NCBI GenBank assembly: GCA_028717245.1
Contig: JAQUOD010000003.1
Span: forward strand, 85,636 to 149,635
Source: Candidatus Omnitrophota bacterium
Lineage (GTDB): Bacteria > Omnitrophota > Gorgyraeia > Gygaellales > Profunditerraquicolaceae
DNA length: 64,000 nt
Reading direction: 5' to 3'
The number at the start of each line of letters is the position of its first letter. Within the stretch, counting starts at the first letter, position 1. This document shows, one piece after another, positions 373 through 39,516 of this stretch. The notes beneath the pieces are model-generated. The model ran no database searches, was not told the DNA's origin, and saw only the letters and a list, made by a program, of their open reading frames with translations. The translations under genes were made by a program, and so were the position numbers.

Positions 373-453
373 AGTCCGTCACGGTTGATACTGAGCGGCC
401 AAGCTCCATCTGTGTCCTAAAGGGACGTGAGTTTTGTGGCCGCGAACGTATAA

Positions 454-4747: not shown

Positions 4748-4757
4748 CCAGGGGGTA

Positions 4758-5216: not shown

Positions 5217-5225
5217 GTTTTTGCC

Positions 5226-5254
5226 TTGACAAGAGCGATTAAATATAGTATTTT
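5226..5254 (+). promoter_or_regulatory. Candidate sigma70-type promoter for hydrogenase-associated operon (TTGACA-17-TATTTT)
   Basis: TTGACA at 5226-5231, 17-bp spacer, TATTTT at 5249-5254. Confidence 0.3.
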
Positions 5255-5329
5255 AGAGTCACATTTTATTTTTTGAGAGGGTTATCTTGTGATAGTTTTC
5301 ACAATATCCCGCCCAACAAATTCTCCGTT

Positions 5330-6391
5330 ATGCACCAGATATATTATATTGAATCCAATCAGTTAGAGACTCTTTTCCAGAAATTAAAAAAGAGCTATAA
5401 GGTATTCTCTCCGGTAGCTAAAGGGCCGAATTACACCGCAAAGGCGGATTATTCCTATAAAGGCCTCGCCGAAGGCGAAAGCCCCGTGTTTAATCCTTAC
5501 CGGGCAGTTGAACCCCTTAAGTCCTTCTTTACCTATGCCCAGGATCAGGCCGCAGAATATTTTAACCGCGACGAACCGGTTTTGGATTCAATGCAGGTTA
5601 TAGTATTCGGCGTTAAAAGTTGTGATATAGCAGGCCATAAGGTGCAGGATTTTGTATTCTTAGAAGGCGTAGAGGTAGATTCTCTATACCGTTTAAGGCG
5701 GGACAACACAATACTTATTTCCGGTGACTGCACTGATTTCAAGGATGTCTGTCATTGTCTTGCCTGGGATATACTGCCGCACCCCACAGAGGGTTTTGAC
5801 CTTAATTTCTCGCCTCTGAATGATGGGTATTTAGTAGAGGTGGGTTCAAAAAAAGGCGAAGGCCTTATCCAACAATACCAGGAATATTTCACTCCGGCAA
5901 AGGAAACCCAGATAGCAGGCCGGCGGGTAAAAAGGGAGAATCTTATCGAGCGCCTTAAAAGGCATCTTTTACCGCAAAAATTGGTTTCCAAGGATAGTGT
6001 GCAAAGATTAATGAGAGAGGGCTATAACCTGGATACCTGGCAGCAGTTTATGCTTACATGCGTCGAATGCGGCGGATGTAATCTTATCTGTAATACCTGT
6101 CATTGTTTTCTCCTGGCGGATAAGAAAGAAGGTAATATTAACAAGAAAGTCAAAGTCTGGGATTCCTGTCAATACGCAAATTTCACCAGGGTCGCCGGAG
6201 GGGCCAACCCTTTAAAGACCAGGACGCAGAGGTTAAGAAACAGGTTCCTGAAAAAATTCGATTTTTTCGTGGATAATTTAGGCATGCCTGCCTGCTGCGG
6301 ATGCGGCAGGTGTATTGAGGTCTGCCCCGGTAAGATTGATATCCGGGAAGTTTTAAAAGACGTAGCCAAAAAGCTTAGTGCCTCCAAATGA
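5330..6391 (+). CDS. Sulfhydrogenase beta subunit / anaerobic sulfite reductase subunit A (HydB/AsrA)-like Fe-S protein
   Basis: Cys clusters CVECGGCNLICNTCHC and CCGCGRCIEVCP; size and position before PyrK-like gamma subunit; start uncertain (ATG 5330 preferred over TTG 5273). Confidence 0.55.
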   Translation: MHQIYYIESNQLETLFQKLKKSYKVFSPVAKGPNYTAKADYSYKGLAEGESPVFNPYRAVEPLKSFFTYAQDQAAEYFNRDEPVLDSMQVIVFGVKSCDIAGHKVQDFVFLEGVEVDSLYRLRRDNTILISGDCTDFKDVCHCLAWDILPHPTEGFDLNFSPLNDGYLVEVGSKKGEGLIQQYQEYFTPAKETQIAGRRVKRENLIERLKRHLLPQKLVSKDSVQRLMREGYNLDTWQQFMLTCVECGGCNLICNTCHCFLLADKKEGNINKKVKVWDSCQYANFTRVAGGANPLKTRTQRLRNRFLKKFDFFVDNLGMPACCGCGRCIEVCPGKIDIREVLKDVAKKLSASK

Positions 6392-7203
6392 AGAATATTT
6401 ATCGGCCCATAGAAGCTGTGCTTGAAGATATCATTACCGAGAGCCCTACAATAAAGACATTTGTTTTAAGGCCCAAAGAGCCCTTTGAATTCAGGACCGG
6501 GCAATTTATCGAGTTGACTTTACCCGGGGTGGGCGAAGCGCCTTTTACGCCTTCATCTGACCCTAACCTGAAAGACAAGATAGATGTGACCATAATGAAT
6601 GTGGGTGAGGTCACCGCGCTTTTACATTCCAGCGCCAAAAATATATCCTTAGGCATACGCGGCCCCTACGGCAAGGGGTATCCCCTGGATAAATTTGAGG
6701 GTAAAGATATTTTAATCGTCGGCGGAGGAGTGGGGCTGGCGCCTTTACGTTCTTTATTATTCAGCCTATTTGCCGATATTGATAAATACAATAAAGTAGT
6801 ATTGCGTTACGGCGCGCGTACTGCCAATGACATCATATATAAGGAAGCCATTCCGCATTGGGCAAAAAAGAAGAAGGTTGACCTGGTTACGACAGTGGAT
6901 ATGGGTAGCCCCGAATGGAAAGGAAACGTCGGCTTAGTAACCACGATATTAAAGGACCTGCCCCTGGATTTGAAGAAAGCAATTTGCGTTGTCTGCGGCC
7001 CGCCCATCATGATGAAATTCGTCACTTTGAAATTACTGGACTTAGGGTTTAATCCTAAAGACATATACCTGTCTATGGAAAAGAATATGTCCTGTGGCCT
7101 GGGTAAATGCGGGCATTGCCGTATCGGCAGTTATTACATTTGTAAGGACGGCCCGGTGTTTACTTATGAGCAGTTAAAGGATTTGTACGATATATGGGAT
7201 TAG
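6388..7203 (+). CDS. Sulfhydrogenase gamma subunit / AsrB / PyrK-like FAD-NAD(P)-binding oxidoreductase with C-terminal 2Fe-2S
   Basis: RTGQF flavin motif, GGGVGLAP NAD(P) motif, C-terminal CGLGKCGHC...C cluster. Confidence 0.75.
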   Translation: MKNIYRPIEAVLEDIITESPTIKTFVLRPKEPFEFRTGQFIELTLPGVGEAPFTPSSDPNLKDKIDVTIMNVGEVTALLHSSAKNISLGIRGPYGKGYPLDKFEGKDILIVGGGVGLAPLRSLLFSLFADIDKYNKVVLRYGARTANDIIYKEAIPHWAKKKKVDLVTTVDMGSPEWKGNVGLVTTILKDLPLDLKKAICVVCGPPIMMKFVTLKLLDLGFNPKDIYLSMEKNMSCGLGKCGHCRIGSYYICKDGPVFTYEQLKDLYDIWD

Positions 7204-7207
7204 ATAG

Positions 7208-7699
7208 ATGAAACGTTTATTTGTCGACTTAGACATCTGTAACCAGTGCAAAGATTGCAGCGCATTCTGCGATTATTTTTATCATCCGCAGAATAACGGG
7301 ATCACTTCTTTGCGCGAATATGCCACCTTTGCTACTATCTGCCGGCATTGCGAAGAGGCGCCCTGCGTAAATTCCTGTTATCATAATGCCTTGGAACGCT
7401 CAAGCGACGGTCACATTAAACGTTATAAGATGCGCTGCACCAGCTGTAAATCCTGTTCTGTAGCTTGTCCCTTCGGGATAATCTTTCAGGATTTCATCCT
7501 ATATCTAGACTCCAGGTGTGATTACTGCGTAGGCAAGAGCGCTAAGTTGCCTAAGTGCGTAACCAGCTGCCCCCATAAGGCCATAGAGATTAAAGAAATA
7601 GAAGAGGATTTGGAGAAAAATATTTATTTTGTAGGCGAACATCTGGCTGTGCATACGCGTAAGTGGTCGAAAGAAGACTTGCAGCCAAAAAAGAGATGA
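7208..7699 (+). CDS. Polyferredoxin-like 4Fe-4S cluster protein
   Basis: Four Cys-rich motifs (CNQCKDCSAFC, CRHCEEAPCVNSC, CTSCKSCSVACP, CDYCVGK...C...CP). Confidence 0.6.
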   Translation: MKRLFVDLDICNQCKDCSAFCDYFYHPQNNGITSLREYATFATICRHCEEAPCVNSCYHNALERSSDGHIKRYKMRCTSCKSCSVACPFGIIFQDFILYLDSRCDYCVGKSAKLPKCVTSCPHKAIEIKEIEEDLEKNIYFVGEHLAVHTRKWSKEDLQPKKR

Positions 7700-7705
7700 C
7701 AAGTT

Positions 7706-7782
7706 CGTTATAGCGTTATAGGGTTATAGCGTTATAGCGTTTGTCAACACAGGTAGCCCGATAACGCAATAACGAAATAACG
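7706..7782. repeat. Intercistronic period-8 inverted-repeat array: (CGTTATAG)x4 then (ATAACG)x3
   Basis: cgttatagcgttatagggttatagcgttatagcgtt ... gataacgcaataacgaaataacg; second half is reverse complement of first. Confidence 0.7.
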
Positions 7783-7787
7783 AAAAT

Positions 7788-8702
7788 ATGCTAAAATTAT
7801 TTTTTCAGTATTTAATATTTCCCGGTTTTCTTTTTAGTGCCTGCGTAGGCTTAATCGCCGGATGGATAGATAGAAAAGTCAGCGCCCGCATCCAGTGGCG
7901 GGTAGGCCCGCCCTGGTATCAGAATTTTGTGGATATCGTGAAATTATTAGGTAAGGAGACCATTGTGCCTGAAGGGGCAAAACTAACCTTTTTATTCTCG
8001 CCCTTTTTAGGCCTATTAAGTTTGATTTTAGTAGCAACAATCTTGGGATTGAATATGTATTCTGCTCCGGCAGGCTTTAGCGGAGATATCATTGTAATCT
8101 TATATCTTTTGACTGTCCCTGCGCTGGCAGTAATCATGGGCGCTTCTTCTTCCAGGAACCCCTTGGCCTCCATTGGTGCCTCACGAGAGATGAAACTGGT
8201 TTTAGGATACGAATTGCCGTTTATATTAGCCGTGATTGCGGTAATAATCAGGTCCGAAGGCGCGATAAAAATCGGCTCGGTCTTAGGGCATCAGATAAAT
8301 GCCGGCTCAAATCTGGCATCCTGGTCAGGGGCCCTGGCGTTTCTGGTAGCCATAATTTGTATGCAGGCAAAGTTGGGCCTGGTGCCGTTTGATATGTCCG
8401 AAGCGGAGCAGGAGATTATGGGCGGGGCCTTTATTGAATATTCGGGCCTGCCTCTGGCTATCTTTAAATTGACAAAGGCGATTTTACTTTATACAATGCC
8501 CCTGTTCTTGATCAGTTTATTCTGGGGTGAGGGCTTAAGCATTTTAGCTTTAACAGGTAAATACATCGCCATATTAGTCATCATCATCCTGATTAAAAAT
8601 ACCAACCCGCGTTTACGCATTGATCAGGCATTAAGATTCTTTTGGGGGCCGGTGACTATTTTAGCGGTGATTGCGGTTGTATTAGCGTTGTTTGGTATAT
8701 AA
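7788..8702 (+). CDS. Membrane-bound hydrogenase subunit MbhM / NuoH-HycD-like
   Basis: DRKVSARIQWRVGP NuoH signature; 8 TM helices. Confidence 0.85.
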   Translation: MLKLFFQYLIFPGFLFSACVGLIAGWIDRKVSARIQWRVGPPWYQNFVDIVKLLGKETIVPEGAKLTFLFSPFLGLLSLILVATILGLNMYSAPAGFSGDIIVILYLLTVPALAVIMGASSSRNPLASIGASREMKLVLGYELPFILAVIAVIIRSEGAIKIGSVLGHQINAGSNLASWSGALAFLVAIICMQAKLGLVPFDMSEAEQEIMGGAFIEYSGLPLAIFKLTKAILLYTMPLFLISLFWGEGLSILALTGKYIAILVIIILIKNTNPRLRIDQALRFFWGPVTILAVIAVVLALFGI

Positions 8703-28394: not shown

Positions 28395-28466
28395 GCCGAG
28401 GTAGCTCAGTGGTAGAGCGCGGCCCTGAAAAGGCCGGCGTGGGGGGTCCGATTCCCTCCCTCGGCA
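28395..28466 (+). tRNA. tRNA-Phe (anticodon GAA)
   Basis: Acceptor gccgagg/cctcggc, D-arm tagctcagtggtagagc, anticodon stem cggcc/ggccg with loop ctGAAaa, T-arm ggggg-tccgatt-ccctc; integrase immediately downstream. Confidence 0.75.
28453..28466 (+). repeat. attL core: 14-bp direct repeat TCCCTCCCTCGGCA (3' end of tRNA-Phe)
   Basis: identical 14-mer recurs at 39339-39352. Confidence 0.65.
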
Positions 28467-28499
28467 TTTAAATTTATAAGCATCTCGTAACTATATTAC

Positions 28500-28528
28500 T
28501 TGACAAGTATTTACAAAAATGCTACTAT
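28500..28528 (+). promoter_or_regulatory. Sigma70-type promoter for integrase (TTGACA-17-TACTAT)
   Basis: TTGACA 28500-28505, TACTAT 28523-28528. Confidence 0.5.
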
Positions 28529-28537
28529 TTCCAATAG

Positions 28538-28560
28538 GTGCCAGTGCCCAAATGGTGCCC
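28538..28560 (-). promoter_or_regulatory. GGCAC(A) triple direct-repeat operator-like site in int leader
   Basis: ggtgcc agtgccc aaatggtgccca = revcomp tGGGCACcatttGGGCACtGGCACc, between -10 and int start. Confidence 0.45.
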
Positions 28561-28587
28561 ATAGAAACATGAAAAAGTGAGGAAATT

Positions 28588-29613
28588 GTGGCAACTCTCC
28601 GTCGGAGAAACGAATCATACTTTGTTGACTACCGGATTAACGGTAGGCGCTTCCGTAAAAAAGTAGGTCCTTCCAAAAGAATAGCCGAGCTTGCCCTAAA
28701 AGATATAGAAGTTAAAATAGCTAAGGGTGAATTAGGTTTTTCACCAAAAGACAATTCTCTAGAGAAGCTATTTGAAGAATATCTTAAATACTCCAAGATA
28801 AACCACGCTCCGAATACTTACGAAAGATACAGGGGGATTCTTGATAACTTCAAGTCTTTCCTTGCTACTCGCCCCTATGTAAATAAGATTTCTCATTTAG
28901 ATCCTAAGTTATTTGAAGATTATAAGCATTTCCGTAAAGAGGGGAAAGCTGAAGATAAAACAGTTAATATAGAGCTTCAGATGCTCCGGGGTATGTTTAA
29001 TTTGGCACGGAAGTGGGGTTATTCTCAAAATAATCCCACAGAAGGCGTAACTTTCTTTAGAATTACCAAAACCCAGGAGCCAAGATTTCTCTCAAAAGAA
29101 GAATGCGAGAAGTTGCTAAATAATTGTGGAGAAGAGTTATATCCTATATTCTTTACTTTTCTTAACACTGGCATGAGAAGAGGTGAGTTGCTTAATCTTG
29201 AATGGAAAGATATAGATTTTAGCAGGAAGAGACTACAAATAAGAGCTAAAGAGGATTGGGAGCCTAAAACCTCAGAACGGTATATTCCTATGAACGATAG
29301 CTTGATAAAGGTACTAAAGAAGCATAAGGAAAAGAGTAGAGGCAGTTTAGTATTTACTGATAATAAAGGCGAGAAAATTCATAAAAACGAAATTAGGAAG
29401 GAACTTATTCGGATCACAAAGAAAAGCGCTTTTCCCGATGTAACAAAATTGCATAGTCTCCGGCATACTTTTGCAAGCCATTTGGTTATGAGCGGAGTAG
29501 ATTTGCCCACAGTAAAAAAACTAATGGGGCACTCAGACATAGAGACAACTATGATTTATTCTCACTTAGCGGATGAACACGTAGATAGGGCAGTAGAAAA
29601 ACTGGAGTTTTAG
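28588..29613 (+). CDS. int: Tyrosine-type site-specific recombinase (phage integrase family)
   Basis: C-terminal catalytic HSLRHTFASHLV...GHSDIETTMIYSHL (R..HxxR..Y) motifs; GTG start. Confidence 0.9.
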   Translation: MATLRRRNESYFVDYRINGRRFRKKVGPSKRIAELALKDIEVKIAKGELGFSPKDNSLEKLFEEYLKYSKINHAPNTYERYRGILDNFKSFLATRPYVNKISHLDPKLFEDYKHFRKEGKAEDKTVNIELQMLRGMFNLARKWGYSQNNPTEGVTFFRITKTQEPRFLSKEECEKLLNNCGEELYPIFFTFLNTGMRRGELLNLEWKDIDFSRKRLQIRAKEDWEPKTSERYIPMNDSLIKVLKKHKEKSRGSLVFTDNKGEKIHKNEIRKELIRITKKSAFPDVTKLHSLRHTFASHLVMSGVDLPTVKKLMGHSDIETTMIYSHLADEHVDRAVEKLEF

Positions 29614-29630
29614 TAGAGTGAGCTCTGAGA

Positions 29631-30425
29631 ATGAATAATAACTATATGCAAAAAAGTCAAAAAAAGACAAAACCAAATGTGAGGGATGAGCTCTCGAGGC
29701 GGGACACCTTACCCAGAGACTTTTTTGTTTTGTTTAATTTCTTTTCTGATCCAACCAGAGATATTTTATCGAAAATATTCTATAAGGCAATGAAGGTCGT
29801 TTATTTTAAGTTCAAAAGGAAAAAGGATATTTGGGAAGCAAAATTGATACGCAAAAATAAACCCTTGAGAGATTTTTATCCTCTCAGCAAAACAGATATT
29901 TCAAATTCCATTTATCTAGTAGATCATTATTTATCAAATCTTTATATTATTCCACCAGAGTGCGATCCTTTATCAAAATTTGGTCATTTTCCTTATGATG
30001 ATGCTATCAAGTTTTATGAGGAATATGTAGAAGGTAGTGTTAAAGATATTTATGGTAGAGAGATTGTTCTTGATGAAAACGGCCTAAATTCATTATTTGA
30101 TCATGATCCAGATCTTAATCCGAAGAACTATAGCGAGTCTCGAGGAAAACGACTTCCCTGGATAATACCAACACTTAGAAATTCTAAAGGAATCTATGAA
30201 TTTACCGAGCGATCCTGGACAACTTATTATTATATTAGCGCATTAAATGTGCCATATAAAGACAAAGCAACGGGAGAAGTATCAAAAGTTATGCATTACT
30301 TCTTTATTGTTATTAGAAAAGAGGCAGGGAAGCCACTAACTCTTATTACTGCATATCATTTTGATAAAGAATTAATGTTTTTGAAATTCTTAGAACCAGC
30401 ACACCCATTTATATATATGCCATAA
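29631..30425 (+). CDS. Hypothetical protein, co-transcribed with integrase
   Basis: 264-aa ORF 18 nt after int stop; no recognisable motif. Confidence 0.45.
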   Translation: MNNNYMQKSQKKTKPNVRDELSRRDTLPRDFFVLFNFFSDPTRDILSKIFYKAMKVVYFKFKRKKDIWEAKLIRKNKPLRDFYPLSKTDISNSIYLVDHYLSNLYIIPPECDPLSKFGHFPYDDAIKFYEEYVEGSVKDIYGREIVLDENGLNSLFDHDPDLNPKNYSESRGKRLPWIIPTLRNSKGIYEFTERSWTTYYYISALNVPYKDKATGEVSKVMHYFFIVIRKEAGKPLTLITAYHFDKELMFLKFLEPAHPFIYMP

Positions 30426-30616
30426 ATAAAGCTTGCAAATCTAAGATAAATGTTGTATGCTTATATCAGTTGAAGATTGCGGTGTAGGTTATCTGTTGTT
30501 TCTACTGGCGGGAATGACAGTCAAGCCTTGCCGCATAACACCAGCCTAAAAATACCAACCAAAAGTTGGTATTTTTTGTTTTATAGAGAGAAAAACAGTT
30601 CAGTTATTAAAAATTA

Positions 30617-30633
30617 GGCACATTTTGGGCACA
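30617..30633 (+). promoter_or_regulatory. GGCACA-TTTT-GGGCACA direct-repeat operator-like site
   Basis: aGGCACAttttGGGCACAg upstream of ORF 30708. Confidence 0.45.
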
Positions 30634-30707
30634 GAAAGACAGGTGATATTCATAACTTATTGAAAAGTAATAGATAAGAGTCGATTGATGTAGAACGAGG
30701 TGTTCTA

Positions 30708-31469
30708 ATGGATTGTTGGTTAAATTTAGGGATCACCGGAGGGTGTTGCTGGCCTACTGAGGACAAAAAGATTTTATTTGGCGGGCATGAATTTCTTCTA
30801 AAACCTGCGACTAGGGAAACAGAACAGTCTATTCATATTAACATTAGTAAGGAAAAAATGTCTCGTATTGATGCGATGACTCTTGTTAACAGGTTTTTAA
30901 GTATTATTTCATGGTGTGATGGTGGGAATGGAGGTATGGATATTATATATGATATCGGTGTGTCTAATGTCGCCCCTATTGCTATACCGATGAGAAGGAG
31001 AATGCTAGGTTCCTCAATAGATTTTCCATTTTACCGGGATATAGAAAAGAATCATAAAGCGTCTTTAGCGCTTGCCCTTTACAGAGAAGGCTTAGTAACG
31101 GATTCTGTTCCTTTGTCTTTCTTGAGCTTCTTTAAGATTATAAATATCTTTTATAATGACAAAACTACAAGAGTAAATAAACAGAAGCCTCAGAATGAAT
31201 TGATCGCAAGCCTAGGAAGTTTACTTCAGCATATAAAGTGTGACCTTGCCACGAAAAGAATAGATGAGCTCAAAAAATCAGTAAATGACATCCCGAAGTA
31301 TTTATATGAACGCCGGTGTGCAATCGCTCATGCATTTGTAGATCCAACAATTGATCCGGATAATGTGGCTGAATCAAGGGATTTATCTCAAGATACATGG
31401 ATTATAAGGGCGATAGCAGATTATCTAATAGAGAAAAAACTCAATGTTTCAAAATCAATATTGGGGTAG
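30708..31469 (+). CDS. Hypothetical protein with C-terminal HEPN-like Rx4-6H motif (candidate RNase/Abi-like)
   Basis: ERRCAIAHAF (R-x4-AH) near C-terminus in predicted helical domain. Confidence 0.5.
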   Translation: MDCWLNLGITGGCCWPTEDKKILFGGHEFLLKPATRETEQSIHINISKEKMSRIDAMTLVNRFLSIISWCDGGNGGMDIIYDIGVSNVAPIAIPMRRRMLGSSIDFPFYRDIEKNHKASLALALYREGLVTDSVPLSFLSFFKIINIFYNDKTTRVNKQKPQNELIASLGSLLQHIKCDLATKRIDELKKSVNDIPKYLYERRCAIAHAFVDPTIDPDNVAESRDLSQDTWIIRAIADYLIEKKLNVSKSILG

Positions 31470-31512
31470 TAAGCACATTAAAAGATAGAGGAGCATTTAA
31501 CTTGAACCAATT

Positions 31513-31530
31513 GGGCACAAGTTAGGCACA
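31513..31530 (+). promoter_or_regulatory. GGGCACA-N5-GGCACA operator-like site
   Basis: ttGGGCACAagttaGGCACAaat upstream of ORF 31637. Confidence 0.4.
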
Positions 31531-31636
31531 AATTTAATCATGGTCAATCCTATCTGCTTGGATTATAACAAGTAGTAGTTATTAGTATTAGATCAGTATA
31601 TTCTAAACTAATCTTGATTGTTACAAGGAAAACAAG

Positions 31637-33199
31637 ATGCCGAATGCTATAGAAGGTAAATATTGCATTTTTAATTACTCTGAATTCCCACAGCTTAAAG
31701 ATAGGGCTTTTCAGTTATTCCAGTATTTTGAGAATAAATACCCAAAGATTCTACAGCTCGTTGATCTTCCAATGCGTGAGAGGGTTAATATCGTTATGAA
31801 AACATTACCCTTAGGGCCACCAGCTGGGAAGACTGGCCATAGTGATATCTATTTGGATCCGAACCAGCTTGATCCTAAGGATTTAGGAGTCTTAGTCCAT
31901 GAGGGAACTCATGTGGCACAAGATTTTCAAGATGATAACTTTGAAAATATTGATAATAAATTATGGCTTATAGAAGGAATGGCTAATCATGTGCGATTGT
32001 TGTTGGGATGGGATGGTCCGAATCAACCCAAATTCGAACCAAGCAAAATAAAAATAAATACTAGCTTGAAAGAGCAAAGAGACTATGATGTGTGGGCTGA
32101 ATTTTTTAAATGGTTAGCAACAAAATATTCTAAAGGAAACTTGCTTGTTGATTTTACAAATGCGTTGAAAAATAGCGAAACAGATGAAGCTTTCCTCAAA
32201 AGAGAATTTGGTAAGTCTAGTGGACAACTCTGGGGAGAATTTGAAGGTCGAGTACTTTTTGAACAATTCAAGGTTAAAAGAGAATTATGGATAGAATGCC
32301 TCTCCGGTAAAGACCGTAATTCTATATTCAATCAGATTTTTGACATGGTTTGGAATGCTGCCGTTTTTAGAGTAATTAACGAGGCGCGCAAGATAACTGC
32401 GGAAAATGAAGAAGGTCAGAAGGAAATCAATGGGATGTTACATCACTTTATAGATGAGTGTTTCTTCGATAGTCAATTTCTTGCTATTCGCCGGTTAACA
32501 GATCCAGCTTATGAGCTACGTGATGCCGAGAGAGGGATTTTTTCTCTATTTGCATTATTAAATGATATGAGGAAAAATATAGCGTTATTCACTAGGGAGA
32601 ATTTTTTTGCAGCAGAAGGTCTCGAATATGATTACGAGGCTATTGAGAAACGAGAGCAAGAGTTTATCGCTGAACAAGTAAAAAATGGACAACGGGTTAT
32701 TTGGGGGCCGCGAGACTTAGATAGTTGGCCGATAAAATTACGTCATGAAGCAATTGATGCGTTATCTGGAGTAAGCGCAGAGCAACGCAAGCCTTCTGAT
32801 GTTATCCAAGAAAAAGTCTTAGATTGTTTAATTAAGATACTTAAAGACGTATCGACAGACATTAACCTATACGTGAATAAATACATAGCGCATCTCGCTA
32901 CGCCTCAGAGTCGGGAGCATTATAAGGCTGATGAAGTATCGATTACCTTAGGTCATTTGTGGAATGCATATAAAGTAATATGTCAGGTTGCTAATTTTGT
33001 CGATTCATATATGCTTACGGGAGCGAGTCACAGTTTTTTACCAGTTCCACAATTTAATAATTTTGAATTTATTGAGAAGTCCTTGGTTTCTTATTCAAAT
33101 ATCGAGGTTTTAAGCAAGGCATGGGATGATTTTTCTAAGGAAACAAGTTCTTGGGGTTCTTGGGGTCTGAAAGAGCTCCGTGAACAAAGTGGGCTTTAG
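31637..33199 (+). CDS. Multidomain protein: N-terminal HExxHxxQ zinc-metallopeptidase-like domain (BSP/basic-secretory-protein-like) + ~320-aa C-terminal domain of unknown function
   Basis: HEGTHVAQD motif at ~aa 88-96; rest unmatched. Confidence 0.5.
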   Translation: MPNAIEGKYCIFNYSEFPQLKDRAFQLFQYFENKYPKILQLVDLPMRERVNIVMKTLPLGPPAGKTGHSDIYLDPNQLDPKDLGVLVHEGTHVAQDFQDDNFENIDNKLWLIEGMANHVRLLLGWDGPNQPKFEPSKIKINTSLKEQRDYDVWAEFFKWLATKYSKGNLLVDFTNALKNSETDEAFLKREFGKSSGQLWGEFEGRVLFEQFKVKRELWIECLSGKDRNSIFNQIFDMVWNAAVFRVINEARKITAENEEGQKEINGMLHHFIDECFFDSQFLAIRRLTDPAYELRDAERGIFSLFALLNDMRKNIALFTRENFFAAEGLEYDYEAIEKREQEFIAEQVKNGQRVIWGPRDLDSWPIKLRHEAIDALSGVSAEQRKPSDVIQEKVLDCLIKILKDVSTDINLYVNKYIAHLATPQSREHYKADEVSITLGHLWNAYKVICQVANFVDSYMLTGASHSFLPVPQFNNFEFIEKSLVSYSNIEVLSKAWDDFSKETSSWGSWGLKELREQSGL

Positions 33200-33203
33200 A
33201 ATA

Positions 33204-33220
33204 GGCACATTTTGGGCACA
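33204..33220 (+). promoter_or_regulatory. GGCACA-TTTT-GGGCACA operator-like site
   Basis: taGGCACAttttGGGCACAaat upstream of ORF 33364. Confidence 0.45.
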
Positions 33221-33363
33221 AATAAACGGTAATCTTTATAACTTCTTGTATTTCATGAAACAAAGAAAAGTAGTTTAGAACAGATAGTTCTAACTCGCTC
33301 AAAAAGTGATATAATGATTCTATAATCACAATAGGTTGCAAATAAGATATGAGAAAAAAGTGA

Positions 33364-33678
33364 ATGGATGATAAAATGCAGCCAATAACTTGGGAAGATT
33401 TTGTATTACAAAGATACGAATGGACGAAAGTTTCTAGGTATGCAGTAACATTGGATGGTATCTTAGTGCGAGACGATAGTAAACCCGACAGTCCCTTTTA
33501 CATGTGCCTATGGGAAGGCTGGTGGGAGCCGCAGGGCTTGCCAGCAGTCGGCGTGAGCATAAGAGATGTACTTGAGGCAAAACCGGTCAGCACGGAAGAA
33601 GCGAGAGAGATAATACGCCGGGAAGCAAAACCTAGAGTAATGAGACCAGCGGAAAGAAAAAACTGGAGATTTGATTGA
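33364..33678 (+). CDS. Hypothetical protein (104 aa)
   Basis: ORF with Trp-rich segment WEGWWEPQG; no motif. Confidence 0.4.
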   Translation: MDDKMQPITWEDFVLQRYEWTKVSRYAVTLDGILVRDDSKPDSPFYMCLWEGWWEPQGLPAVGVSIRDVLEAKPVSTEEAREIIRREAKPRVMRPAERKNWRFD

Positions 33679-33772
33679 TACAAATTATTATTGATTGTTT
33701 TCTTTGTTGAGGTAATATTGAGTTAGACAATCTGGTCCAATAGCTTTACCTTAAAGAGGCTTTAAGGCCTCT

Positions 33773-33851
33773 AACAGTGACGTAAGGTAAGCTGCATTAC
33801 TCCCCGAAAGGGGAGGGGGAAATGCAGTCTTATCGGATTTACGTCACTGTT
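33773..33851 (+). other. 79-nt three-tier hairpin: 13-bp perfect stem (aacagtgacgtaa/ttacgtcactgtt), 8-bp inner stem, 6-bp stem with GAAA tetraloop; T-tract 15 nt downstream
   Basis: perfect inverted repeats; ctccccgaaaggggag GNRA hairpin at centre. Confidence 0.55.
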
Positions 33852-33911
33852 GCCGGTAGGAATATGCGCCCCCTTTTTTGTTAAAGTGGGTATATATAAA
33901 GGAGGGATAAG

Positions 33912-34445
33912 ATGAATATTTTAGAGCAAATTATGATAGGATTCATAGGAAGGCCAATCTTAACTCTTATTAAATGGTTAAGATGGTATTTCTTTCTTGG
34001 TGGGATAATGTTCAATACGGTTGAGATATATGATCCAGCTACTAAAAGCATAGTTTCAAGCCAGTTTACTATAATCCCTTTTCTTTTGGGTTTAGTTTTA
34101 TTAGCTATTGGATTGACAGTTAAGAGATATGATGAAAATGTTGCTACGCTTCACGGTATCTCTATGTTGGAAGGATTGCAGGGAAAGATAAGAAAAGCCT
34201 ATCAAAATGGTAAGGAAGCAGATGCACAGGAGAGGGTGGACAAGGATTACCAAGAAACGCTCCAATTGTTAGCGGAGGGGCGGCAAGTACTCAACAAAGC
34301 GAGATCGGAGCGGTTGAGAGACGACAGCAGTCCGTTCAATCCGAGATTAAGCGAGAACGAAGCCTCTGGGGTTATTAAGAAGTCAGTAGAAGCTATTGAG
34401 CAAGAAGAGAAGCAAAATAAATCTAAACAAGATAACAAAAAGTAA
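33912..34445 (+). CDS. Hypothetical membrane protein (2 TM + charged coiled-coil C-terminus)
   Basis: two hydrophobic helices, then E/K/Q-rich tail. Confidence 0.4.
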   Translation: MNILEQIMIGFIGRPILTLIKWLRWYFFLGGIMFNTVEIYDPATKSIVSSQFTIIPFLLGLVLLAIGLTVKRYDENVATLHGISMLEGLQGKIRKAYQNGKEADAQERVDKDYQETLQLLAEGRQVLNKARSERLRDDSSPFNPRLSENEASGVIKKSVEAIEQEEKQNKSKQDNKK

Positions 34446-34623
34446 TATTATATTTTCTTAGTCTTAATCGGTCCCCCCCCCTAAGAGCTTCGCAATCTAT
34501 CCAACCAAATAGTGCTTTTCTTTCGTTCCTTTGCGTCTCTACCTGTTTTGTGCTTAAATTTTGCCATTAAGATGGTTTTTTTTCTTTATACTCTATTTAA
34601 AGTAGTAATTTGGTATATGCGAT

Positions 34624-35640
34624 TTGTGGTATAATTATATAAAAAGCGAGGAAGACGTGGCTTTAAAGACTAAGAAGAAACTATTTGAAAAATTAAACAA
34701 TGTAGAAGAAGCGCTCTGTTTATCAAAAATATCTCAACCCGAGTTTTTTGAGGCATATTTAGAACTTGAAACAAATCTCCACAGTATTTTTAAAAAAATA
34801 GGGGAAGTTTACGAAAAAAATAAAATTAGTCATCAAAATAATCCTGAATACATTAAGCTAAAACAACATAAAAAGAATTTAATAAGTAATTTCTACAAAA
34901 AATGGGGAATATCTCCTTCATCTTTTAAAGTAGTTAATAGTAAAATAGAGATAGACGAATCTATTAAAAACATAGACGGGATTGCGGTGCATATTGATAC
35001 TCCTCTTCCTGAAATAATCGGGAAGATCGTGCCTGCTAAGGAAAAATATTTAACTTTGTTGATAGACACCTTCGAAGAAAAAGAAATAATTTTAGCCGAA
35101 GTTTCCCGGATCTATGATTGGATAAATGAGATGCGAACAGAAACGGGAGTAAAGCTTCCTAAAGACAAATGTCATGTAAAGGTATTGGTTAGGAGATACA
35201 AAGTATTTAATCTAAGAAACCAAAGACCCCCAATGAAATTCAAGGAAATTGTTTTTCATATGATAACGAAAGGATTTTATAAAGATGAAACATTAGAAAA
35301 AGCAGAAAACTTAGCAAAAAAAGATTATGCAGCGGCTTATAGGAAGATTCACGGTATTCCATATAAAGAGCATAATAAATCGCAACTTAAGAAATCAAAT
35401 TTCAAAGGTTGCGCGTCTTGTGAAGCAAGACAAAAATGTAAAGAGCCTTGTTCCCAAGCAGAGTATTATTTATCTTTAGATGAAAAGAAGCAATCAGAAC
35501 TGCTTTTTAATAGGGGCGTAACTGATATTATTCATCCCGAAGATCTTAAAGAGGCGAAACAGAAAAAAAGAGCGATGATGTCAGAAGATGAAGAAGAGTG
35601 GAGACAAGAAGAGATTGAAAGGGGTATATATAAAAAGTAG
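34624..35640 (+). CDS. Hypothetical Lys-rich protein with C-terminal Cys cluster (CASCEARQKCKEPC)
   Basis: 338-aa ORF; start could be in-frame GTG at 34657. Confidence 0.4.
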   Translation: MWYNYIKSEEDVALKTKKKLFEKLNNVEEALCLSKISQPEFFEAYLELETNLHSIFKKIGEVYEKNKISHQNNPEYIKLKQHKKNLISNFYKKWGISPSSFKVVNSKIEIDESIKNIDGIAVHIDTPLPEIIGKIVPAKEKYLTLLIDTFEEKEIILAEVSRIYDWINEMRTETGVKLPKDKCHVKVLVRRYKVFNLRNQRPPMKFKEIVFHMITKGFYKDETLEKAENLAKKDYAAAYRKIHGIPYKEHNKSQLKKSNFKGCASCEARQKCKEPCSQAEYYLSLDEKKQSELLFNRGVTDIIHPEDLKEAKQKKRAMMSEDEEEWRQEEIERGIYKK

Positions 35641-35655
35641 TGTTTAGGGAAAATT

Positions 35656-35693
35656 AAATCAGGGTAACCCGATTTTTCACTTTTACAAGGGTG
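35656..35693 (+). repeat. 38-bp direct repeat copy 1 (aaatcagggtaacccgatttttcacttttacaagggtg)
   Basis: identical to 35738-35775. Confidence 0.8.
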
Positions 35694-35723
35694 AGGGCTT
35701 AAAAACTCTCACCCTTTTTGTTT
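35688..35723 (+). terminator. Rho-independent terminator (agggtgag/ctcaccct, T-tract) overlapping repeat copy 1
   Basis: 8-bp perfect stem + tttttgttt. Confidence 0.65.
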
Positions 35724-35737
35724 ATCCAGGCTTTTAA

Positions 35738-35775
35738 AAATCAGGGTAACCCGATTTTTCACTTTTACAAGGGTG
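35738..35775 (+). repeat. 38-bp direct repeat copy 2, 20 nt upstream of SpoVG-like gene
   Basis: identical to copy 1; contains near-palindrome atcagggtaacccgat. Confidence 0.8.
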
Positions 35776-35795
35776 GAAGGACAAATTTAAAGAAG

Positions 35796-36119
35796 ATGAG
35801 CGAAATAGTGGTCTCCGAAGTTCAAATTATTCCAGTTAAACCCAGAGAGGGCCTCGTTGCTTTTGCTTCTTGTGTTATCAACGGCCATTTTTATCTTGGT
35901 GGATTAGCGATTTATACCTGTCTTTCTTCCTCAGAAGGTTTCCGAGTGACCTATCCTACCAAAGTTTTAAATAACGGCACTAAATTAGATCTAGTTTATC
36001 CAATAACACGCGAAGTTGGGTTAACAGTTCAGAAGAAAATTGTCGAAAAATACGTAAAACTCATAGAAGATTTAACGAAAGGGAATGGTAAAAATGAACA
36101 AGAGCCGAGATTTACTTAA
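35796..36119 (+). CDS. SpoVG-like nucleic-acid-binding protein
   Basis: VSEVQIIPVKPREGLVAFASCVINGHFYLGGLAIY...GFRVTYPTK...VYPITREVGLTVQKKIVEKY matches SpoVG fold pattern; ATG 35796 preferred over ORF-track 35718. Confidence 0.5.
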   Translation: MSEIVVSEVQIIPVKPREGLVAFASCVINGHFYLGGLAIYTCLSSSEGFRVTYPTKVLNNGTKLDLVYPITREVGLTVQKKIVEKYVKLIEDLTKGNGKNEQEPRFT

Positions 36120-36399
36120 ACGTTTCGCCTCTTCAAAATCAAAATATTTTGATTTGCCTGATGGCGAAGAAACCCAAGTAAAATTTCTTTATGCAGAAGA
36201 AGTCCCTAATCATTTTGATGGCGGAGAAACAGTTTGTATTCGCTATCACTTTGACGTTGATGGTAAAGAAATGCTTTGGGATAGAACTTCGAGAGAGTTA
36301 GCTAAACAAATAGCTTCGATTTCTGAAGGAGAAACAATTTTAATAAAAAGAACCGGTGAAAAAAGTAAAACTAAATATTTTATCAGGAAAGTTGAATAA
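36085..36399 (+). CDS. Hypothetical protein (104 aa)
   Basis: ORF only. Confidence 0.35.
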   Translation: MVKMNKSRDLLKRFASSKSKYFDLPDGEETQVKFLYAEEVPNHFDGGETVCIRYHFDVDGKEMLWDRTSRELAKQIASISEGETILIKRTGEKSKTKYFIRKVE

Positions 36400-36616
36400 T
36401 GACATCAACAAGGCCCCTGTCAATTTTTCATCGCTCTGACCTACTTACTCTGTCAACGATGACCTATACAAGCATGCAGGGGCTTTGTTTTAGATTTAGA
36501 TATTGCTTTAGAGATATGCTTGGTAGGAATAAAGAGTAAAGCTTAGGCCAATAGAACGTAATTAAGTTATTTATTTCTATATATAGATAATAGTCATTTA
36601 AGAGGAGGGGAAGGAT

Positions 36617-36868
36617 ATGGGATTAACCGGAGTTAACAAATTATGTGCTCAGTGTATAAATAAATGTAAGCAGTGGAGGGAAATCAAGGTAATCAGCTGT
36701 CCACTTTTTATAAGCACGCAAAGAAAAAAACCTGATCTGAATGGCAGAAATTTTCAAGGCATACCCAACAAGCACAGGGGAATGGCGGAAATGCCATTCT
36801 TTGAGGCGTTTTCTGAAGAAAGGAATAAAGATATGGCTTCTGAGTTTATGGATACCCTGCAAGCGTGA
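36617..36868 (+). CDS. Hypothetical small protein with CxxC..C zinc-ribbon-like N-terminus
   Basis: CAQCINKCKQW; GGAGGGG RBS. Confidence 0.35.
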   Translation: MGLTGVNKLCAQCINKCKQWREIKVISCPLFISTQRKKPDLNGRNFQGIPNKHRGMAEMPFFEAFSEERNKDMASEFMDTLQA

Positions 36869-36912
36869 GATATTAGTACAAACTATACTAAACTATACCA
36901 CATTGAACGGAA

Positions 36913-37299
36913 ATGGATAAAAAGACGAAACTGTCAAACAGGCAATTATTAACAGTCAGTCATATCATTACTTCTCCTACCCTTGAAGAAGCCAGAAGGA
37001 AAGCTAAGGTAAGTAAGGGAACTTTATACGCTTGGTTAAAAGAAGAAGCCTTTAAGGTTGAGTTGAAGCGTCAGAGAGATGAAGTTATTAAAGAAGCGCT
37101 CTCTCGGTTAAAGAGTGCTATATCCCAGGCTGTAGAAAAATTGGTTAAGTTACTTGATAATGAAAAGCCAGATTTGAGGCGCCTAGTTTGTAGGGATATA
37201 CTGAATTATGCTTTAAAGAGCATTGAACTAGAAGATATCGAGACAAGGATAGCCAATCTGGAAGAAAAAACAAAATTAGCACGGAAATTTCACAGATGA
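36913..37299 (+). CDS. HTH DNA-binding protein (terminase-small-subunit-like or regulator)
   Basis: TLEEARRKAKVSKGTLYAWLK helix-turn-helix. Confidence 0.45.
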   Translation: MDKKTKLSNRQLLTVSHIITSPTLEEARRKAKVSKGTLYAWLKEEAFKVELKRQRDEVIKEALSRLKSAISQAVEKLVKLLDNEKPDLRRLVCRDILNYALKSIELEDIETRIANLEEKTKLARKFHR

Positions 37300-37553
37300 G
37301 AATTGAGAAGAGATTAGAACGGCTCGAGAAAGATATAGGGGATAAATTTCAGCCAGACCCCGGAGAAATTATTATCAATGGCAAAAGGTTAGACCAAATG
37401 ACAACGGAGGAGTTGATAGCAGATGTCAATAAGAAGGTTAAGGCCATGGAGGATACAGAGTATGGAAGGAAAATAATGAAACTATCCATAGACGATAAAA
37501 TAAAACGTCTAAACCAATGGGCTATTACCGGCGTTTGTCCACCATTAGATTAG
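37296..37553 (+). CDS. Hypothetical coiled-coil protein (85 aa)
   Basis: ORF overlapping upstream stop (ATGA). Confidence 0.35.
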   Translation: MRIEKRLERLEKDIGDKFQPDPGEIIINGKRLDQMTTEELIADVNKKVKAMEDTEYGRKIMKLSIDDKIKRLNQWAITGVCPPLD

Positions 37554-37581
37554 CCAAATTTATGGGGAGAATATGAAAAAA

Positions 37582-37609
37582 GGCATTTTTTGGGCATTTT
37601 TTGGGCACA
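37582..37609 (+). promoter_or_regulatory. Triple GGCA/GGGCA/GGGCACA direct-repeat operator-like site upstream of xis
   Basis: aGGCAttttttGGGCAttttttGGGCACAaaat. Confidence 0.45.
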
Positions 37610-37688
37610 AAATTAAGGTTATCTTTTGTTATGTATTGCAAACAAAGAAGTTAGTAAAAGTTAGTGCAGAATAAGGAAATCTAACCTT

Positions 37689-37895
37689 GTGGAAAAGTTA
37701 CTTACGATAAGCCAATTAAGTGAGTTATTACAAGTTAGTCCAAAGACAATTTATCAATGGACGCACATAGGTTTTGTTCCTCACTATAAATTCCCTAAAG
37801 GTGTTCGTTTTAGGATAATAGAAATAGAAAATTGGTTAAAAAGCAGGAAAAAAAGAGGGAGAGCTTCGTATGTCTTGGTTGACAAAGGACCATAA
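37689..37895 (+). CDS. xis: AlpA/excisionase-family HTH protein (Xis)
   Basis: LLTISQLSELLQVSPKTIYQW...GVRFRIIEIENWL pattern typical of phage excisionase/AlpA. Confidence 0.7.
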   Translation: MEKLLTISQLSELLQVSPKTIYQWTHIGFVPHYKFPKGVRFRIIEIENWLKSRKKRGRASYVLVDKGP

Positions 37896-38775
37896 TTATG
37901 TTATTTTAAGGCAGCATAAGGAGATAACTTTGAAAGGTACAATTCAAGAAAAAACAAAGATTGCATACCTTGGTCCGGAAGAAACCTTTAGCCATCAGGT
38001 TGTAGATGAGCTCTTTGGAGATTCGGCAATATACCTACCTCAAGATAATTTTCCCTCAGTTATAAAACTTATATGCGACGGCAAGGCAGACAGAGGTGTT
38101 ATTCCATTCTTTAACCCCTATGAAGAACATATACGCGAATGTCAAGAAGAGCTATTCAAAACCGATTTAATAGCAACAAATGTTCATAAGATTGATATTG
38201 ATTTATACTTAGCAACTAACAGATTACGTTTGGATGAGGTAAAATCAATACGATCTAATGAGCATGTGTTTAAACAATGTGATGTTTGGTTAAGTCAACA
38301 TTTACCAGAAATACGTTTTGATGGAAGAGGTAGCACCGCGGGAGCAGCCGAGGATATAAAAAAAATACCTTATGCCGCGGCAATCTGCTCATTTAAAGCT
38401 GCCATAAAAAACGATCTGGATATTTTAGCAAAAAGCATACAAAATACAAAGAATTTCACATTATTTTTTGTTATACAAAAAGCAGATACCATAGAAGAAT
38501 GGGAAGACTATTCATTTCTTTGTTTCAAGATAAAAGATGCTAAAGAACAAAAAGCAATATTGGATATTCTTCAGAAACATCGTTTCAGAAGTTCGCAAAA
38601 GTGGGATTTTCCTCATCCGACGGGGGAATACATACTTTTCTTCTTAGAGTTTTTTGGAGCTTATCTTGATGCAAATGTTGTTTCTTTTATCGCAGAGGTT
38701 AAAAAATACTTTCCAGACTGTAAACTGATAGGGACTTTTAAGGAGAGTATTACGAGAAGAATGGTTGAAATTTAG
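37870..38775 (+). CDS. Divergent prephenate-dehydratase (PDT)-like domain protein
   Basis: IAYLGPEETFSH, SNEHVFKQC, STAGAAE, N-FTLF (cf. PDT IAYLGPEGTFS, SHPQALAQC, STAAAA, N-TRF); Arg of TRF replaced by Leu. Confidence 0.45.
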   Translation: MSWLTKDHNYVILRQHKEITLKGTIQEKTKIAYLGPEETFSHQVVDELFGDSAIYLPQDNFPSVIKLICDGKADRGVIPFFNPYEEHIRECQEELFKTDLIATNVHKIDIDLYLATNRLRLDEVKSIRSNEHVFKQCDVWLSQHLPEIRFDGRGSTAGAAEDIKKIPYAAAICSFKAAIKNDLDILAKSIQNTKNFTLFFVIQKADTIEEWEDYSFLCFKIKDAKEQKAILDILQKHRFRSSQKWDFPHPTGEYILFFLEFFGAYLDANVVSFIAEVKKYFPDCKLIGTFKESITRRMVEI

Positions 38776-38776
38776 T

Positions 38777-38806
38777 TTGACAAAGTGAGAAAAGATACTA
38801 TATAAT
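38777..38806 (+). promoter_or_regulatory. Sigma70-type promoter (TTGACA ... TATATAAT)
   Basis: TTGACA 38777-38782; tactatataat 38797-38806. Confidence 0.45.
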
Positions 38807-38831
38807 AGAGTACATCCTATCCTATCACAAT

Positions 38832-39095
38832 ATGACTAAAAACGAAGAAATGAAACCATTTCTGAACTTGACAACTGTCCAGATTAACGGTTGGGCTATG
38901 GCTTTTTGCCCTGAATTTGAGGTATCTGCTTGTGGTCCTGATCGCGATGCAGTGGTCGAGGATTTATTTGATATGGTCAAAAGGAACGCAAGCATATTCT
39001 TGCAAGAAGAGTCAACTTCTCCGGCTCTAAGAAAATGGTCGAAAGAAGTTGTTGATCATCAGGATCGTATTGCAGATTTATTCAAAACAGCTTAA
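38832..39095 (+). CDS. HicB-like (UPF0150) antitoxin-fold protein, solitary
   Basis: INGWAMAFCPEFEVSACGPDRDAVVEDLFDMVK resembles HicB N-domain; no HicA partner seen. Confidence 0.35.
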   Translation: MTKNEEMKPFLNLTTVQINGWAMAFCPEFEVSACGPDRDAVVEDLFDMVKRNASIFLQEESTSPALRKWSKEVVDHQDRIADLFKTA

Positions 39096-39187
39096 TAGTA
39101 GTAGTCATTTGTCACGGTTTTTATAAAAACAGAAGTGGTTAATTACTTCTGTTTTTTTATTTGTAATTTTATAAAATAAGATACTTC

Positions 39188-39205
39188 TGTGCCCAAAATG
39201 TGCCC
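39188..39205 (-). promoter_or_regulatory. GGGCACA-TTTT-GGGCACA operator-like site (reverse orientation) near island right end
   Basis: tgtgcccaaaatgtgccca. Confidence 0.4.
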
Positions 39206-39338
39206 ATCCAAGTGAAAAACATCGGGAAACAAAGGGTAACATCAGGCAACATCCAGACTCGCTAATCCATTGACAATAAAAGCATTGGATATTTAATACA
39301 TTAAAACACAGAGGGTTAGGGAAATAAGCACGATGGAC

Positions 39339-39352
39339 TCCCTCCCTCGGCA
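39339..39352 (+). repeat. attR core: 14-bp direct repeat TCCCTCCCTCGGCA
   Basis: exact copy of tRNA-Phe 3' end (28453-28466). Confidence 0.65.
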
Positions 39353-39496: not shown

Positions 39497-39516
39497 AATG
39501 GCACGCTAATGGCACA
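39497..39516 (+). promoter_or_regulatory. AATGGCAC direct-repeat pair ~150 bp outside attR (same half-site and 11-bp phasing as island motif)
   Basis: aatggcacgctaatggcaca. Confidence 0.3.

Follow-up and report, generated by a model that had tools for sequence, protein, structure and literature searches.

Genes and features of the locus

We examined a stretch of 64,000 nucleotides (nt) from the metagenome-assembled genome (MAG) of a Candidatus Omnitrophota bacterium (NCBI GenBank assembly GCA_028717245.1, contig JAQUOD010000003.1, positions 85,636 to 149,635 of the forward strand), hereafter the window, in which four open reading frames (ORFs), here called ORF-A to ORF-D, follow a tyrosine integrase gene (int) in the same orientation. 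A 10.9-kb integrative element (28467-39352), inserted in a tRNA-Phe gene of this Omnitrophota MAG, carries the four genes as cargo next to its integrase. An earlier note on this DNA, made from the letters alone, had read them as a candidate defence or abortive-infection module. Across 45 foreign loci no conserved linkage of the families to which they belong was found, and ORF-C, one of the four, joins two proteins that elsewhere are encoded by separate genes. The five genes, int included, have the coordinates, lengths and plus-strand orientation given for them previously, and ORF-A does start 18 nt past the end of int (Table 1).

The extent of the element is drawn from two features. The last 17 nt of tRNA-Phe, GATTCCCTCCCTCGGCA, form one copy of a direct repeat whose second copy, with one mismatch, marks the right end of the island. 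Between these copies there is a trough in GC content, from ~29 to 39.5 kb, where the value falls from ~0.43 to ~0.35 before returning to ~0.44 at attR. The placement of an excisionase-like HTH_17 gene within these limits and of FUR outside them agrees with this extent. The block was thereby confirmed as integrase-linked cargo on an island in tRNA-Phe.

Table 1. Coordinates of the genes and sequence features of the element, numbered from the first letter of the window.
Feature	Position	Strand	Description
tRNA-Phe (GAA)	28395-28466	+	ARAGORN; Rfam tRNA, 63.5 bits; 3′ end carries attL, one of the two copies of the 17-nt att core (28450-28466)
int	28588-29613	+	Tyrosine integrase; Pfam Phage_integrase, 1.9e-34, and SAM-like N-domains
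ORF-A	29631-30425	+	264 amino acids (aa); orphan family
Terminator-like hairpin and T-run	30548-30576	+	12-bp stem; predicted to close the int-ORF-A unit
GGCACATTTTGGGCACA motif	30617-30633	+	Exact; 75 nt upstream of ORF-B
ORF-B	30708-31469	+	253 aa; MauJ family
GGCACAAGTTAGGCACA motif	31514-31530	+	Exact; 107 nt upstream of ORF-C
ORF-C	31637-33199	+	520 aa; zincin and AbiU2-type fusion
ORF-C N-domain (residues 1-203)	31637-32245	+	BSP-like zincin
ORF-C C-domain (residues 205-520)	32249-33199	+	AbiU2-type HEPN-like helical domain
GGCACATTTTGGGCACA motif	33204-33220	+	Exact; 144 nt upstream of ORF-D
ORF-D	33364-33678	+	104 aa; singleton
Structured element	33755-33860	+	Long imperfect hairpin; lies 3′ of ORF-D, ahead of the next gene
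Small-terminase-like gene	36913-37299		Helix-turn-helix (HTH) gene inside the island
Excisionase-like gene	37689-37895		HTH_17; inside the island
Prephenate-dehydratase-domain (PDT) protein	37870-38775		9.4e-36; overlaps the end of the excisionase-like gene
attR	39336-39352	+	Copy of the 17-nt att core, 16/17 identical to the tRNA 3′ end; right island end

Transcription layout and the 17-nt motif

A sigma-70-like promoter was located upstream of int by a promoter scan (28500-28528), and int and ORF-A form one predicted operon. Since a terminator-like hairpin lies 3′ of ORF-A, and since a separate copy of a 17-nt motif precedes each of ORF-B, ORF-C and ORF-D, the predicted layout of the block is one int-ORF-A unit followed by three monocistronic cassettes.

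The motif had been described as a GGCACA operator, specific to the island, in front of every gene of the block. It does precede ORF-B, ORF-C and ORF-D, but it is not present before ORF-A, and the real unit is not the bare hexamer but the 17-nt GGCACA-N5-GGCACA. We found 11 matches at no more than two mismatches, against 2.3 expected from shuffles. More copies lie before int (28543-28559, minus strand) and at 37593-37609, 39188-39204 (minus strand) and 39500-39516. The island specificity is borne out insofar as the motif is missing from all 45 foreign loci that we searched, other Omnitrophota contigs included, and a general host promoter was rejected on this ground; one good copy, that at 39500, lies ~150 nt outside attR and upstream of FUR. 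The presence of the motif in both orientations and its closeness to both att sites would fit a repressor operator or the binding sites of a recombination protein no less well than a sigma-54 promoter. Sigma-54 -24/-12 promoters have the form TGGCACG-N4-TTGCW, with GG and GC 12 nt apart. If the motif is written as (G)GGCAC-N6-GGCAC, it has the spacing and the core of such a promoter, with the main mismatch at -14.

Downstream of ORF-D, the fold of 33740-33880, which spans the long imperfect hairpin, has an energy of -57.7 kcal/mol (z = -5.0), and none of 200 shuffles was as stable. The hairpin does not match Rfam. Its probable role is that of a terminator or insulator closing the cargo block; alternatively, it could be a structured RNA of a new type.

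Distribution of the four families

Hidden Markov models of four families, namely those of ORF-A, ORF-B, and the N-terminal and C-terminal domains of ORF-C, were run with hmmsearch against the six-frame ORFs of the 45 foreign loci. These had been collected around homologs of each family, and among them are 11 distinct contexts for ORF-B and 3 for the C-domain with flanks of at least 6 kb. Exactly one of the four families was found in each locus (45/45), in agreement with earlier BLASTP and phmmer runs. All four families occur together only in L046, which is an independent assembly of the same element. Because no families co-occur in these loci, and because the genes fall into separate predicted transcription units, the single module that the earlier note had proposed is not supported.

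ORF-B is a member of the MauJ family

By its profile match, ORF-B is a new and solid member of MauJ (PF17419), a known family that is functionally uncharacterised. Residues 121-242 match the full length of the profile (positions 1-116 of 116; E-value 2e-17, 64.6 bits against a cut-off of 28), and each of the ORF-B relatives examined also hits MauJ (20/20). The ORF-B family comprises more than 250 clusters, and its homologs align over their full length. No mau genes are found beside ORF-B, whose neighbours are int, ORF-A and ORF-C, or in the neighbourhoods of its homologs, which instead adjoin ParE/antitoxin pairs as well as Fic, N6_N4 methylase, DUF4160 and TPR genes.

The string ERRCAIAHAF, residues 201-210 of ORF-B, had been taken for a HEPN RNase motif of the Rx4-6H kind, and this claim stands for the motif itself. 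The Rx4H (R203 to H208, codons at nt 31314-31331) is strictly conserved, with R203, C204, A205, A207 and H208 invariant in 20 diverse homologs that share 48-78% identity with ORF-B. In an AlphaFold2 model (pLDDT 83.9, pTM 0.82), an N-terminal alpha/beta domain (~1-110) is followed by a C-terminal six-helix domain (116-244), and the motif lies in the latter, at the end of helix 195-208. The claim does not extend to a significant HEPN profile or fold match. HEPN_Apea was matched at E = 0.088 (13.7 bits against a cut-off of 24.4), and weakly by 2 of the 20 relatives; the HEPN-type similarity returned by a fold search with the model was weak. A comparison by hhalign of the ORF-B family with the AbiU2-like family of the ORF-C C-domain reached a probability of 6.5%, which is not significant, and its top alignment pairs the ...IAH... 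helices of the two. HEPN membership of ORF-B is therefore no more than plausible, on account of the invariant motif. The PADLOC matches of ORF-B were DzbB (E = 0.0039, 14.7 bits) and a type I specificity subunit (E = 0.018), neither of them significant, and a literature search combining MauJ and HEPN returned nothing relevant.

Two side observations concern the wider family. In L014, L016 and L017, from Rhodobacter, Rhizobium and Aestuariivirgaceae, a MauJ-like region ~30% identical to ORF-B makes up the C-terminal half of open frames of ~470-500 codons, and these alphaproteobacterial frames suggest that the classical MauJ lineage has a longer architecture. Closely 3′ of some ORF-B homologs there is also a small gene of 104, 171 or 204 aa (L021-L026, 6788-7102; L007, 6842-7357; L009, 6705-7319). 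Two Nitrospirota examples are alike, and the small genes are unrelated to ORF-D and not conserved across the family, such that a lineage-specific partner of the respective ORF-B homologs is a possible reading of them.

ORF-C joins a zincin to an AbiU2-type domain

The N-terminal part of ORF-C had been assigned to the zinc peptidases of the basic secretory protein (BSP) type, and this assignment holds. Residues 84-202 match BSP (PF04450) at 1e-8 (35.7 bits against a cut-off of 23.8), over profile positions 104-207 of 207 only. The sequence HEGTHVAQ occupies residues 88-95, with the codons of H88-E89-x-x-H92 at 31898-31912 and that of E113 at 31973-31975. The HExxH...E arrangement is intact. Among 16 N-domain relatives H88, E89, H92, E113 and R120 do not vary, and Q95 hardly does. 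Given the invariance of their key residues in homologs, both ERRCAIAHAF and HEGTHVAQ can be regarded as selected features and not as chance strings. On direct reading, neither the N-terminus of ORF-C, MPNAIEGKYCIFNYSEFPQLKD, nor those of its standalone relatives contain a hydrophobic, signal-like stretch, and the zincin domain is probably cytoplasmic. The model of the N-domain was built without an alignment and is of low confidence, and no structural claim is taken from it.

The remaining ~320 aa of ORF-C, previously considered unassignable, do have a family: residues 242-457 match HEPN_AbiU2 (PF18734) at 8.8e-7 (29.0 bits against a cut-off of 26.8), as do 18 of 25 C-domain relatives, the best at 9.5e-9. 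This domain was modelled at pLDDT ~90. The residues invariant in the C-domain family are W218, D226, W239, R285, S303, R320, L376, A418, H419 and R426, of which A418-H419...R426 are encoded at nt 32888-32914. The family is without the canonical arginine of Rx4-6H, as position -5 from H419 is occupied by N, T or D and position -4 by K, R, N or Q.

Both halves are found as proteins in their own right. An exhaustive search for residues 1-216 retrieved standalone proteins of 202-212 aa, of which P0193 is 79% identical over 1-207. Of the 72 C-domain homologs, 70 are standalone proteins of ~318 aa whose match to ORF-C is confined to its C-terminal 60%; P0002 is the nearest (84% identical). Residues 1-203 of ORF-C align to residues 1-203 of P0193 (of 212), and residues 205-520 to residues 4-318 of P0002. 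The junction is linker-less, with 9 residues dropped from the zincin partner and 3 from the AbiU2-like partner, and no in-frame start codon is found at it. An independent Logan assembly of SRR22315508 contains the same 520-aa ORF-C and the same order int-ORF-A-ORF-B-ORF-C-ORF-D, which led us to reject an assembly chimera, and the protein has two NCBI accessions. ORF-C is thus a real end-to-end fusion of two proteins encoded separately elsewhere. The combination was seen only in this element, among the 72 C-domain homologs and 166 N-domain relatives, and no papers were retrieved by a literature search on fusions of HEPN and metalloprotease proteins in defence against phages. At the level of its domain matches, ORF-C is a new architecture (BSP zincin and AbiU2) made from two known families and seen once. 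One C-domain homolog, P0067, carries a different N-terminal extension of ~200 aa and adjoins a gene with an SLFN_AlbA_2 domain.

Another C-domain homolog, P0032, is located between hsdS on one side and an AIPR gene and hsdR on the other, and hence inside a type I restriction-modification (R-M) operon, in one genome. This operon, at locus L002 of another Omnitrophica genome (GCA_028707125.1, JAQTUX010000001.1, 2682-11948), contains hsdM, a 181-aa gene, hsdS, the AbiU2-like gene, AIPR and hsdR, which amounts to a compact type I R-M operon with two Abi-type genes. The standalone BSP-like P0193 is found among reverse transcriptase (RT), HsdR, DUF4062, PIF1-type helicase and PD-(D/E)XK nuclease genes, and another standalone BSP-like gene adjoins a PIN_12 gene. 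In L028 (JGI Ga0643576_001738, 1-8633), the locus of the closest standalone BSP-like gene, where this same set of RT to PD-(D/E)XK neighbours is seen, HsdR has a C-terminal Peptidase_S24 domain, an unusual fusion. An alignment-based metagenome scan yielded 13 BSP-like loci, none of them beside an AbiU2-like gene, and a metagenome scan with P0193 alone returned nothing.

ORF-A, ORF-D and the rest of the element

ORF-A represents a family of 8 clusters (7 besides ORF-A) with 49-75% identity and has no match in Pfam, PHROG, PADLOC or NCBIfam. Its 75% identical homolog P0344 matches PBECR2 (PF18810) over residues 144-246 at E = 0.021 (15.5 bits against a cut-off of 27.1); ORF-A itself has no PBECR2 match. 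Kinship of ORF-A with the BECR-fold RNases of PBECR2, which is sub-threshold and extends over the conserved C-terminal half, is a lead only. The homologs of ORF-A are not adjacent to an integrase, and are found 3′ of a C5-methylase and HhH-GPD block, or 3′ of an HNH gene beside an rve_3 transposase gene. ORF-D is as unfamiliar as first described, with no family match in Pfam, PADLOC, PHROGs or NCBIfam, no relatives on viral contigs or in the 45 foreign loci, and a 90% cluster of one member. Scans of ORF-A to ORF-D against PHROGs and NCBIfam gave nothing significant, and no relatives were found in a PDB sequence search with the family profiles of ORF-A, ORF-B and the two ORF-C domains.

Further island genes encode 177-aa and 338-aa proteins without assigned function and a SpoVG-like protein, in addition to the small-terminase-like, excisionase-like and prephenate-dehydratase-domain genes of Table 1, the last of which is an unusual metabolic-type cargo for a mobile island. 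No capsid or tail genes were found in the island, and the genes outside attR (FUR, methyltransferase-, ParA/MinD-like and RNR-like genes) are of chromosomal type. A complete prophage was rejected, given that capsid and tail genes are missing, that the element stops at 39352 and that chromosomal-type genes lie beyond. The element is a small integrative one, and may be satellite-like. A perfect 38-nt direct repeat (35656-35693 and 35738-35775, 82 nt apart, with a weaker copy at 36681-36718) flanks a small hairpin just 5′ of the point where the SpoVG-like gene probably begins, and may have an iteron-like or a regulatory role. The TTG start listed at 35718 probably over-extends the SpoVG-like ORF.

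Interpretation and alternative explanations

The defence-type setting suspected for the block is supported by the homologs, as R-M, toxin-antitoxin or nuclease-rich accessory regions are where the relatives of ORF-B, and those of each half of ORF-C, are found. With a probability of roughly 0.55, we favour the explanation that the four genes were acquired, and are transcribed, independently of one another, as single-gene cargo of a toxin or abortive-infection kind, and that they do not make up one multi-protein system. ORF-B and the C-domain of ORF-C would then be auto-inhibited RNA-targeting effectors. Infection by a phage or a competing element would release them, translation would be shut down, and the outcome would be abortive infection or inter-element exclusion. 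The N-terminal alpha/beta domain of ORF-B could serve as a sensor or an inhibitor, and the zincin of ORF-C could gate its effector by cleaving either ORF-C itself or a protein of the invader. Alternatively, the zincin may descend from a neighbouring cargo gene that was joined to the AbiU2-like gene by an in-frame deletion, with the loss of one promoter-motif cassette boundary. ORF-A could add a third RNase-type protein, of the BECR fold.

Several points weigh against this explanation. Every function in it is read from sequence, and the sample of neighbourhoods is small, at ~20 distinct contexts, some of them on short contigs. The four families and ORF-D were not found on IMG/VR viral contigs. 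The defence role that had been proposed finds no echo in PADLOC-DB v2, where ORF-A to ORF-D have no significant match and ORF-A, ORF-C and ORF-D none at all. As the canonical Rx4-6H arginine is not conserved in the AbiU2-like family, RNase activity of the C-domain is uncertain. The fusion is a singleton, and it may have no adaptive meaning. Lactococcal AbiUii (= AbiU2), furthermore, was never shown to protect, and it lowered the effect of AbiUi (PMC13064643).

Some of these same observations are what would be expected if ORF-C were a neutral or decaying product of an accidental in-frame deletion, its AbiU2-like domain being non-catalytic (a binder or an AbiUii-like regulator) and the block having no coordinated or novel activity. 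The confinement of the fusion to this element, a junction at which just the last 9 and first 3 residues are lost with no linker, the unconserved arginine and the lowering of resistance by AbiUii would all be in line with such an origin. Nevertheless, the frame is open over 520 codons and every family-invariant residue is kept in both domains, N-terminal fusions recur in the family, to judge from the extension of P0067, and the invariance of H419, R426, R285 and R320 suggests a conserved active or binding site. We consider decay unlikely.

The genes could also be involved in the maintenance or regulation of the island and not in defence, with the HEPN-like genes and ORF-A as addiction toxins and the zincin as an anti-repressor protease like ImmA/IrrE. 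They adjoin int, the small element that carries them also encodes an excisionase-like HTH_17 protein, homologs of ORF-B occur beside ParE/antitoxin and DUF4160 pairs, and the common motif at both island ends and before the cargo is what an element-encoded regulator would be expected to produce. Such a role is nonetheless improbable. Neither ORF-B nor ORF-C is accompanied by a cognate antitoxin or repressor gene, and none is seen in the loci of their homologs either; the standalone BSP-like homologs are not beside HTH repressors, and the C-domain homolog P0032 sits in a chromosomal R-M operon. The zincin is of BSP type, and ImmA/IrrE is not among its Pfam matches at E<=1; an ImmA/IrrE anti-repressor was accordingly rejected, being the wrong family with no paired repressor.

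ORF-C could, more ambitiously, be treated as a Rosetta stone, according to which cytoplasmic BSP-like zincins would form a class of defence-island proteins not recognised so far that partner or gate HEPN effectors (a protease-controlled AbiU2 RNase), the large MauJ family would be a widespread and as yet unnamed one of solo HEPN Abi proteins, and three distinct RNA-targeting immunity genes, a BECR-like ORF-A among them, would be brought together by one element-specific motif. We regard this combined proposal as unlikely. A single new multi-component defence or abortive-infection system, with a peptidase as sensor or activator and HEPN proteins as effectors, is very unlikely. In its favour, the genes are neighbours with one orientation, the motif that they have in common might place them in one regulon, and their order is preserved in an independent assembly of the element. 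Against it stand 0 co-occurring pairs of the four families in the 45 foreign loci, a terminator 3′ of ORF-A with separate motifs for ORF-B, ORF-C and ORF-D, and close homologs of each part (75-84% identity) that are solo genes in unrelated contexts.

If the preferred explanation of independent cargo genes is right, ORF-B would offer a first functional handle on the MauJ family, with its more than 250 clusters and no function in the family libraries and literature searched. A cytoplasmic BSP-type zincin would likewise join the repertoire of defence islands, and its fusion to AbiU2 would constitute a testable coupling of a protease and an effector. A small tRNA-integrated element with conflict-type cargo is in any case documented here in Omnitrophota. 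Current ideas are not overturned, and the proposed four-gene system is unsupported; the locus would become more important if the fusion turned out to reflect a working partnership of protease and HEPN protein.

Comparison with known systems

AbiU2 has been listed as a HEPN family that is found in R-M operons (Anantharaman et al., 2013; PMC3710099), and this association is matched by the homolog P0032. Compared with AbiU2/AbiUii of the Lactococcus lactis AbiU locus (PF18734), the domain described here is fused to a zincin and has an invariant A-H-x6-R in place of the canonical arginine. Its subfamily consists of proteins of ~318 aa from Omnitrophota and Phycisphaerae. With the BSP family, the 'peptidase of plants and bacteria' (PF04450), the N-domain has in common the HExxH and the downstream Glu and Arg, the profile match being over the catalytic half. 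It differs from that family in having no signal-like stretch, and the proteins most closely related to it, ~205 aa long, are encoded as solo genes in islands rich in nuclease and R-M genes.

MauJ (PF17419) is named for an accessory gene of methylamine-utilisation clusters, and ORF-B matches its whole 116-position profile. Unlike that gene, ORF-B is carried on a mobile island where no methylamine-utilisation genes adjoin it, its relatives are found near toxin-antitoxin, Fic and methylase genes, and it has a conserved alpha/beta domain of ~110 aa at the N-terminus, beyond the Pfam model. Solo HEPN defence proteins such as AbiV, AbiD/F, AbiJ and ApeA would be similar to ORF-B and ORF-C in combining a regulatory N-terminal part with a C-terminal HEPN RNase, and for ORF-B the weak HEPN_Apea similarity and the invariant Rx4H point the same way; they differ in that there is no significant profile or PADLOC match to them and that the fold similarity of ORF-B is weak.

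Small integrative elements and phage satellites (P4-like elements and phage-inducible chromosomal islands, PICI) carry hotspots of defence genes and other cargo beside the integrase. The present element differs from P4-like and PICI elements in its host phylum, Omnitrophota, and in that no helper phage and no primase/replicase or capsid-redirecting genes were identified. It resembles them as a tRNA-integrated element of ~11 kb with int, excisionase-like and small-terminase-like HTH genes, and a variable block of conflict-type genes beside int. Single-gene HEPN cargo beside integrases is a familiar pattern.

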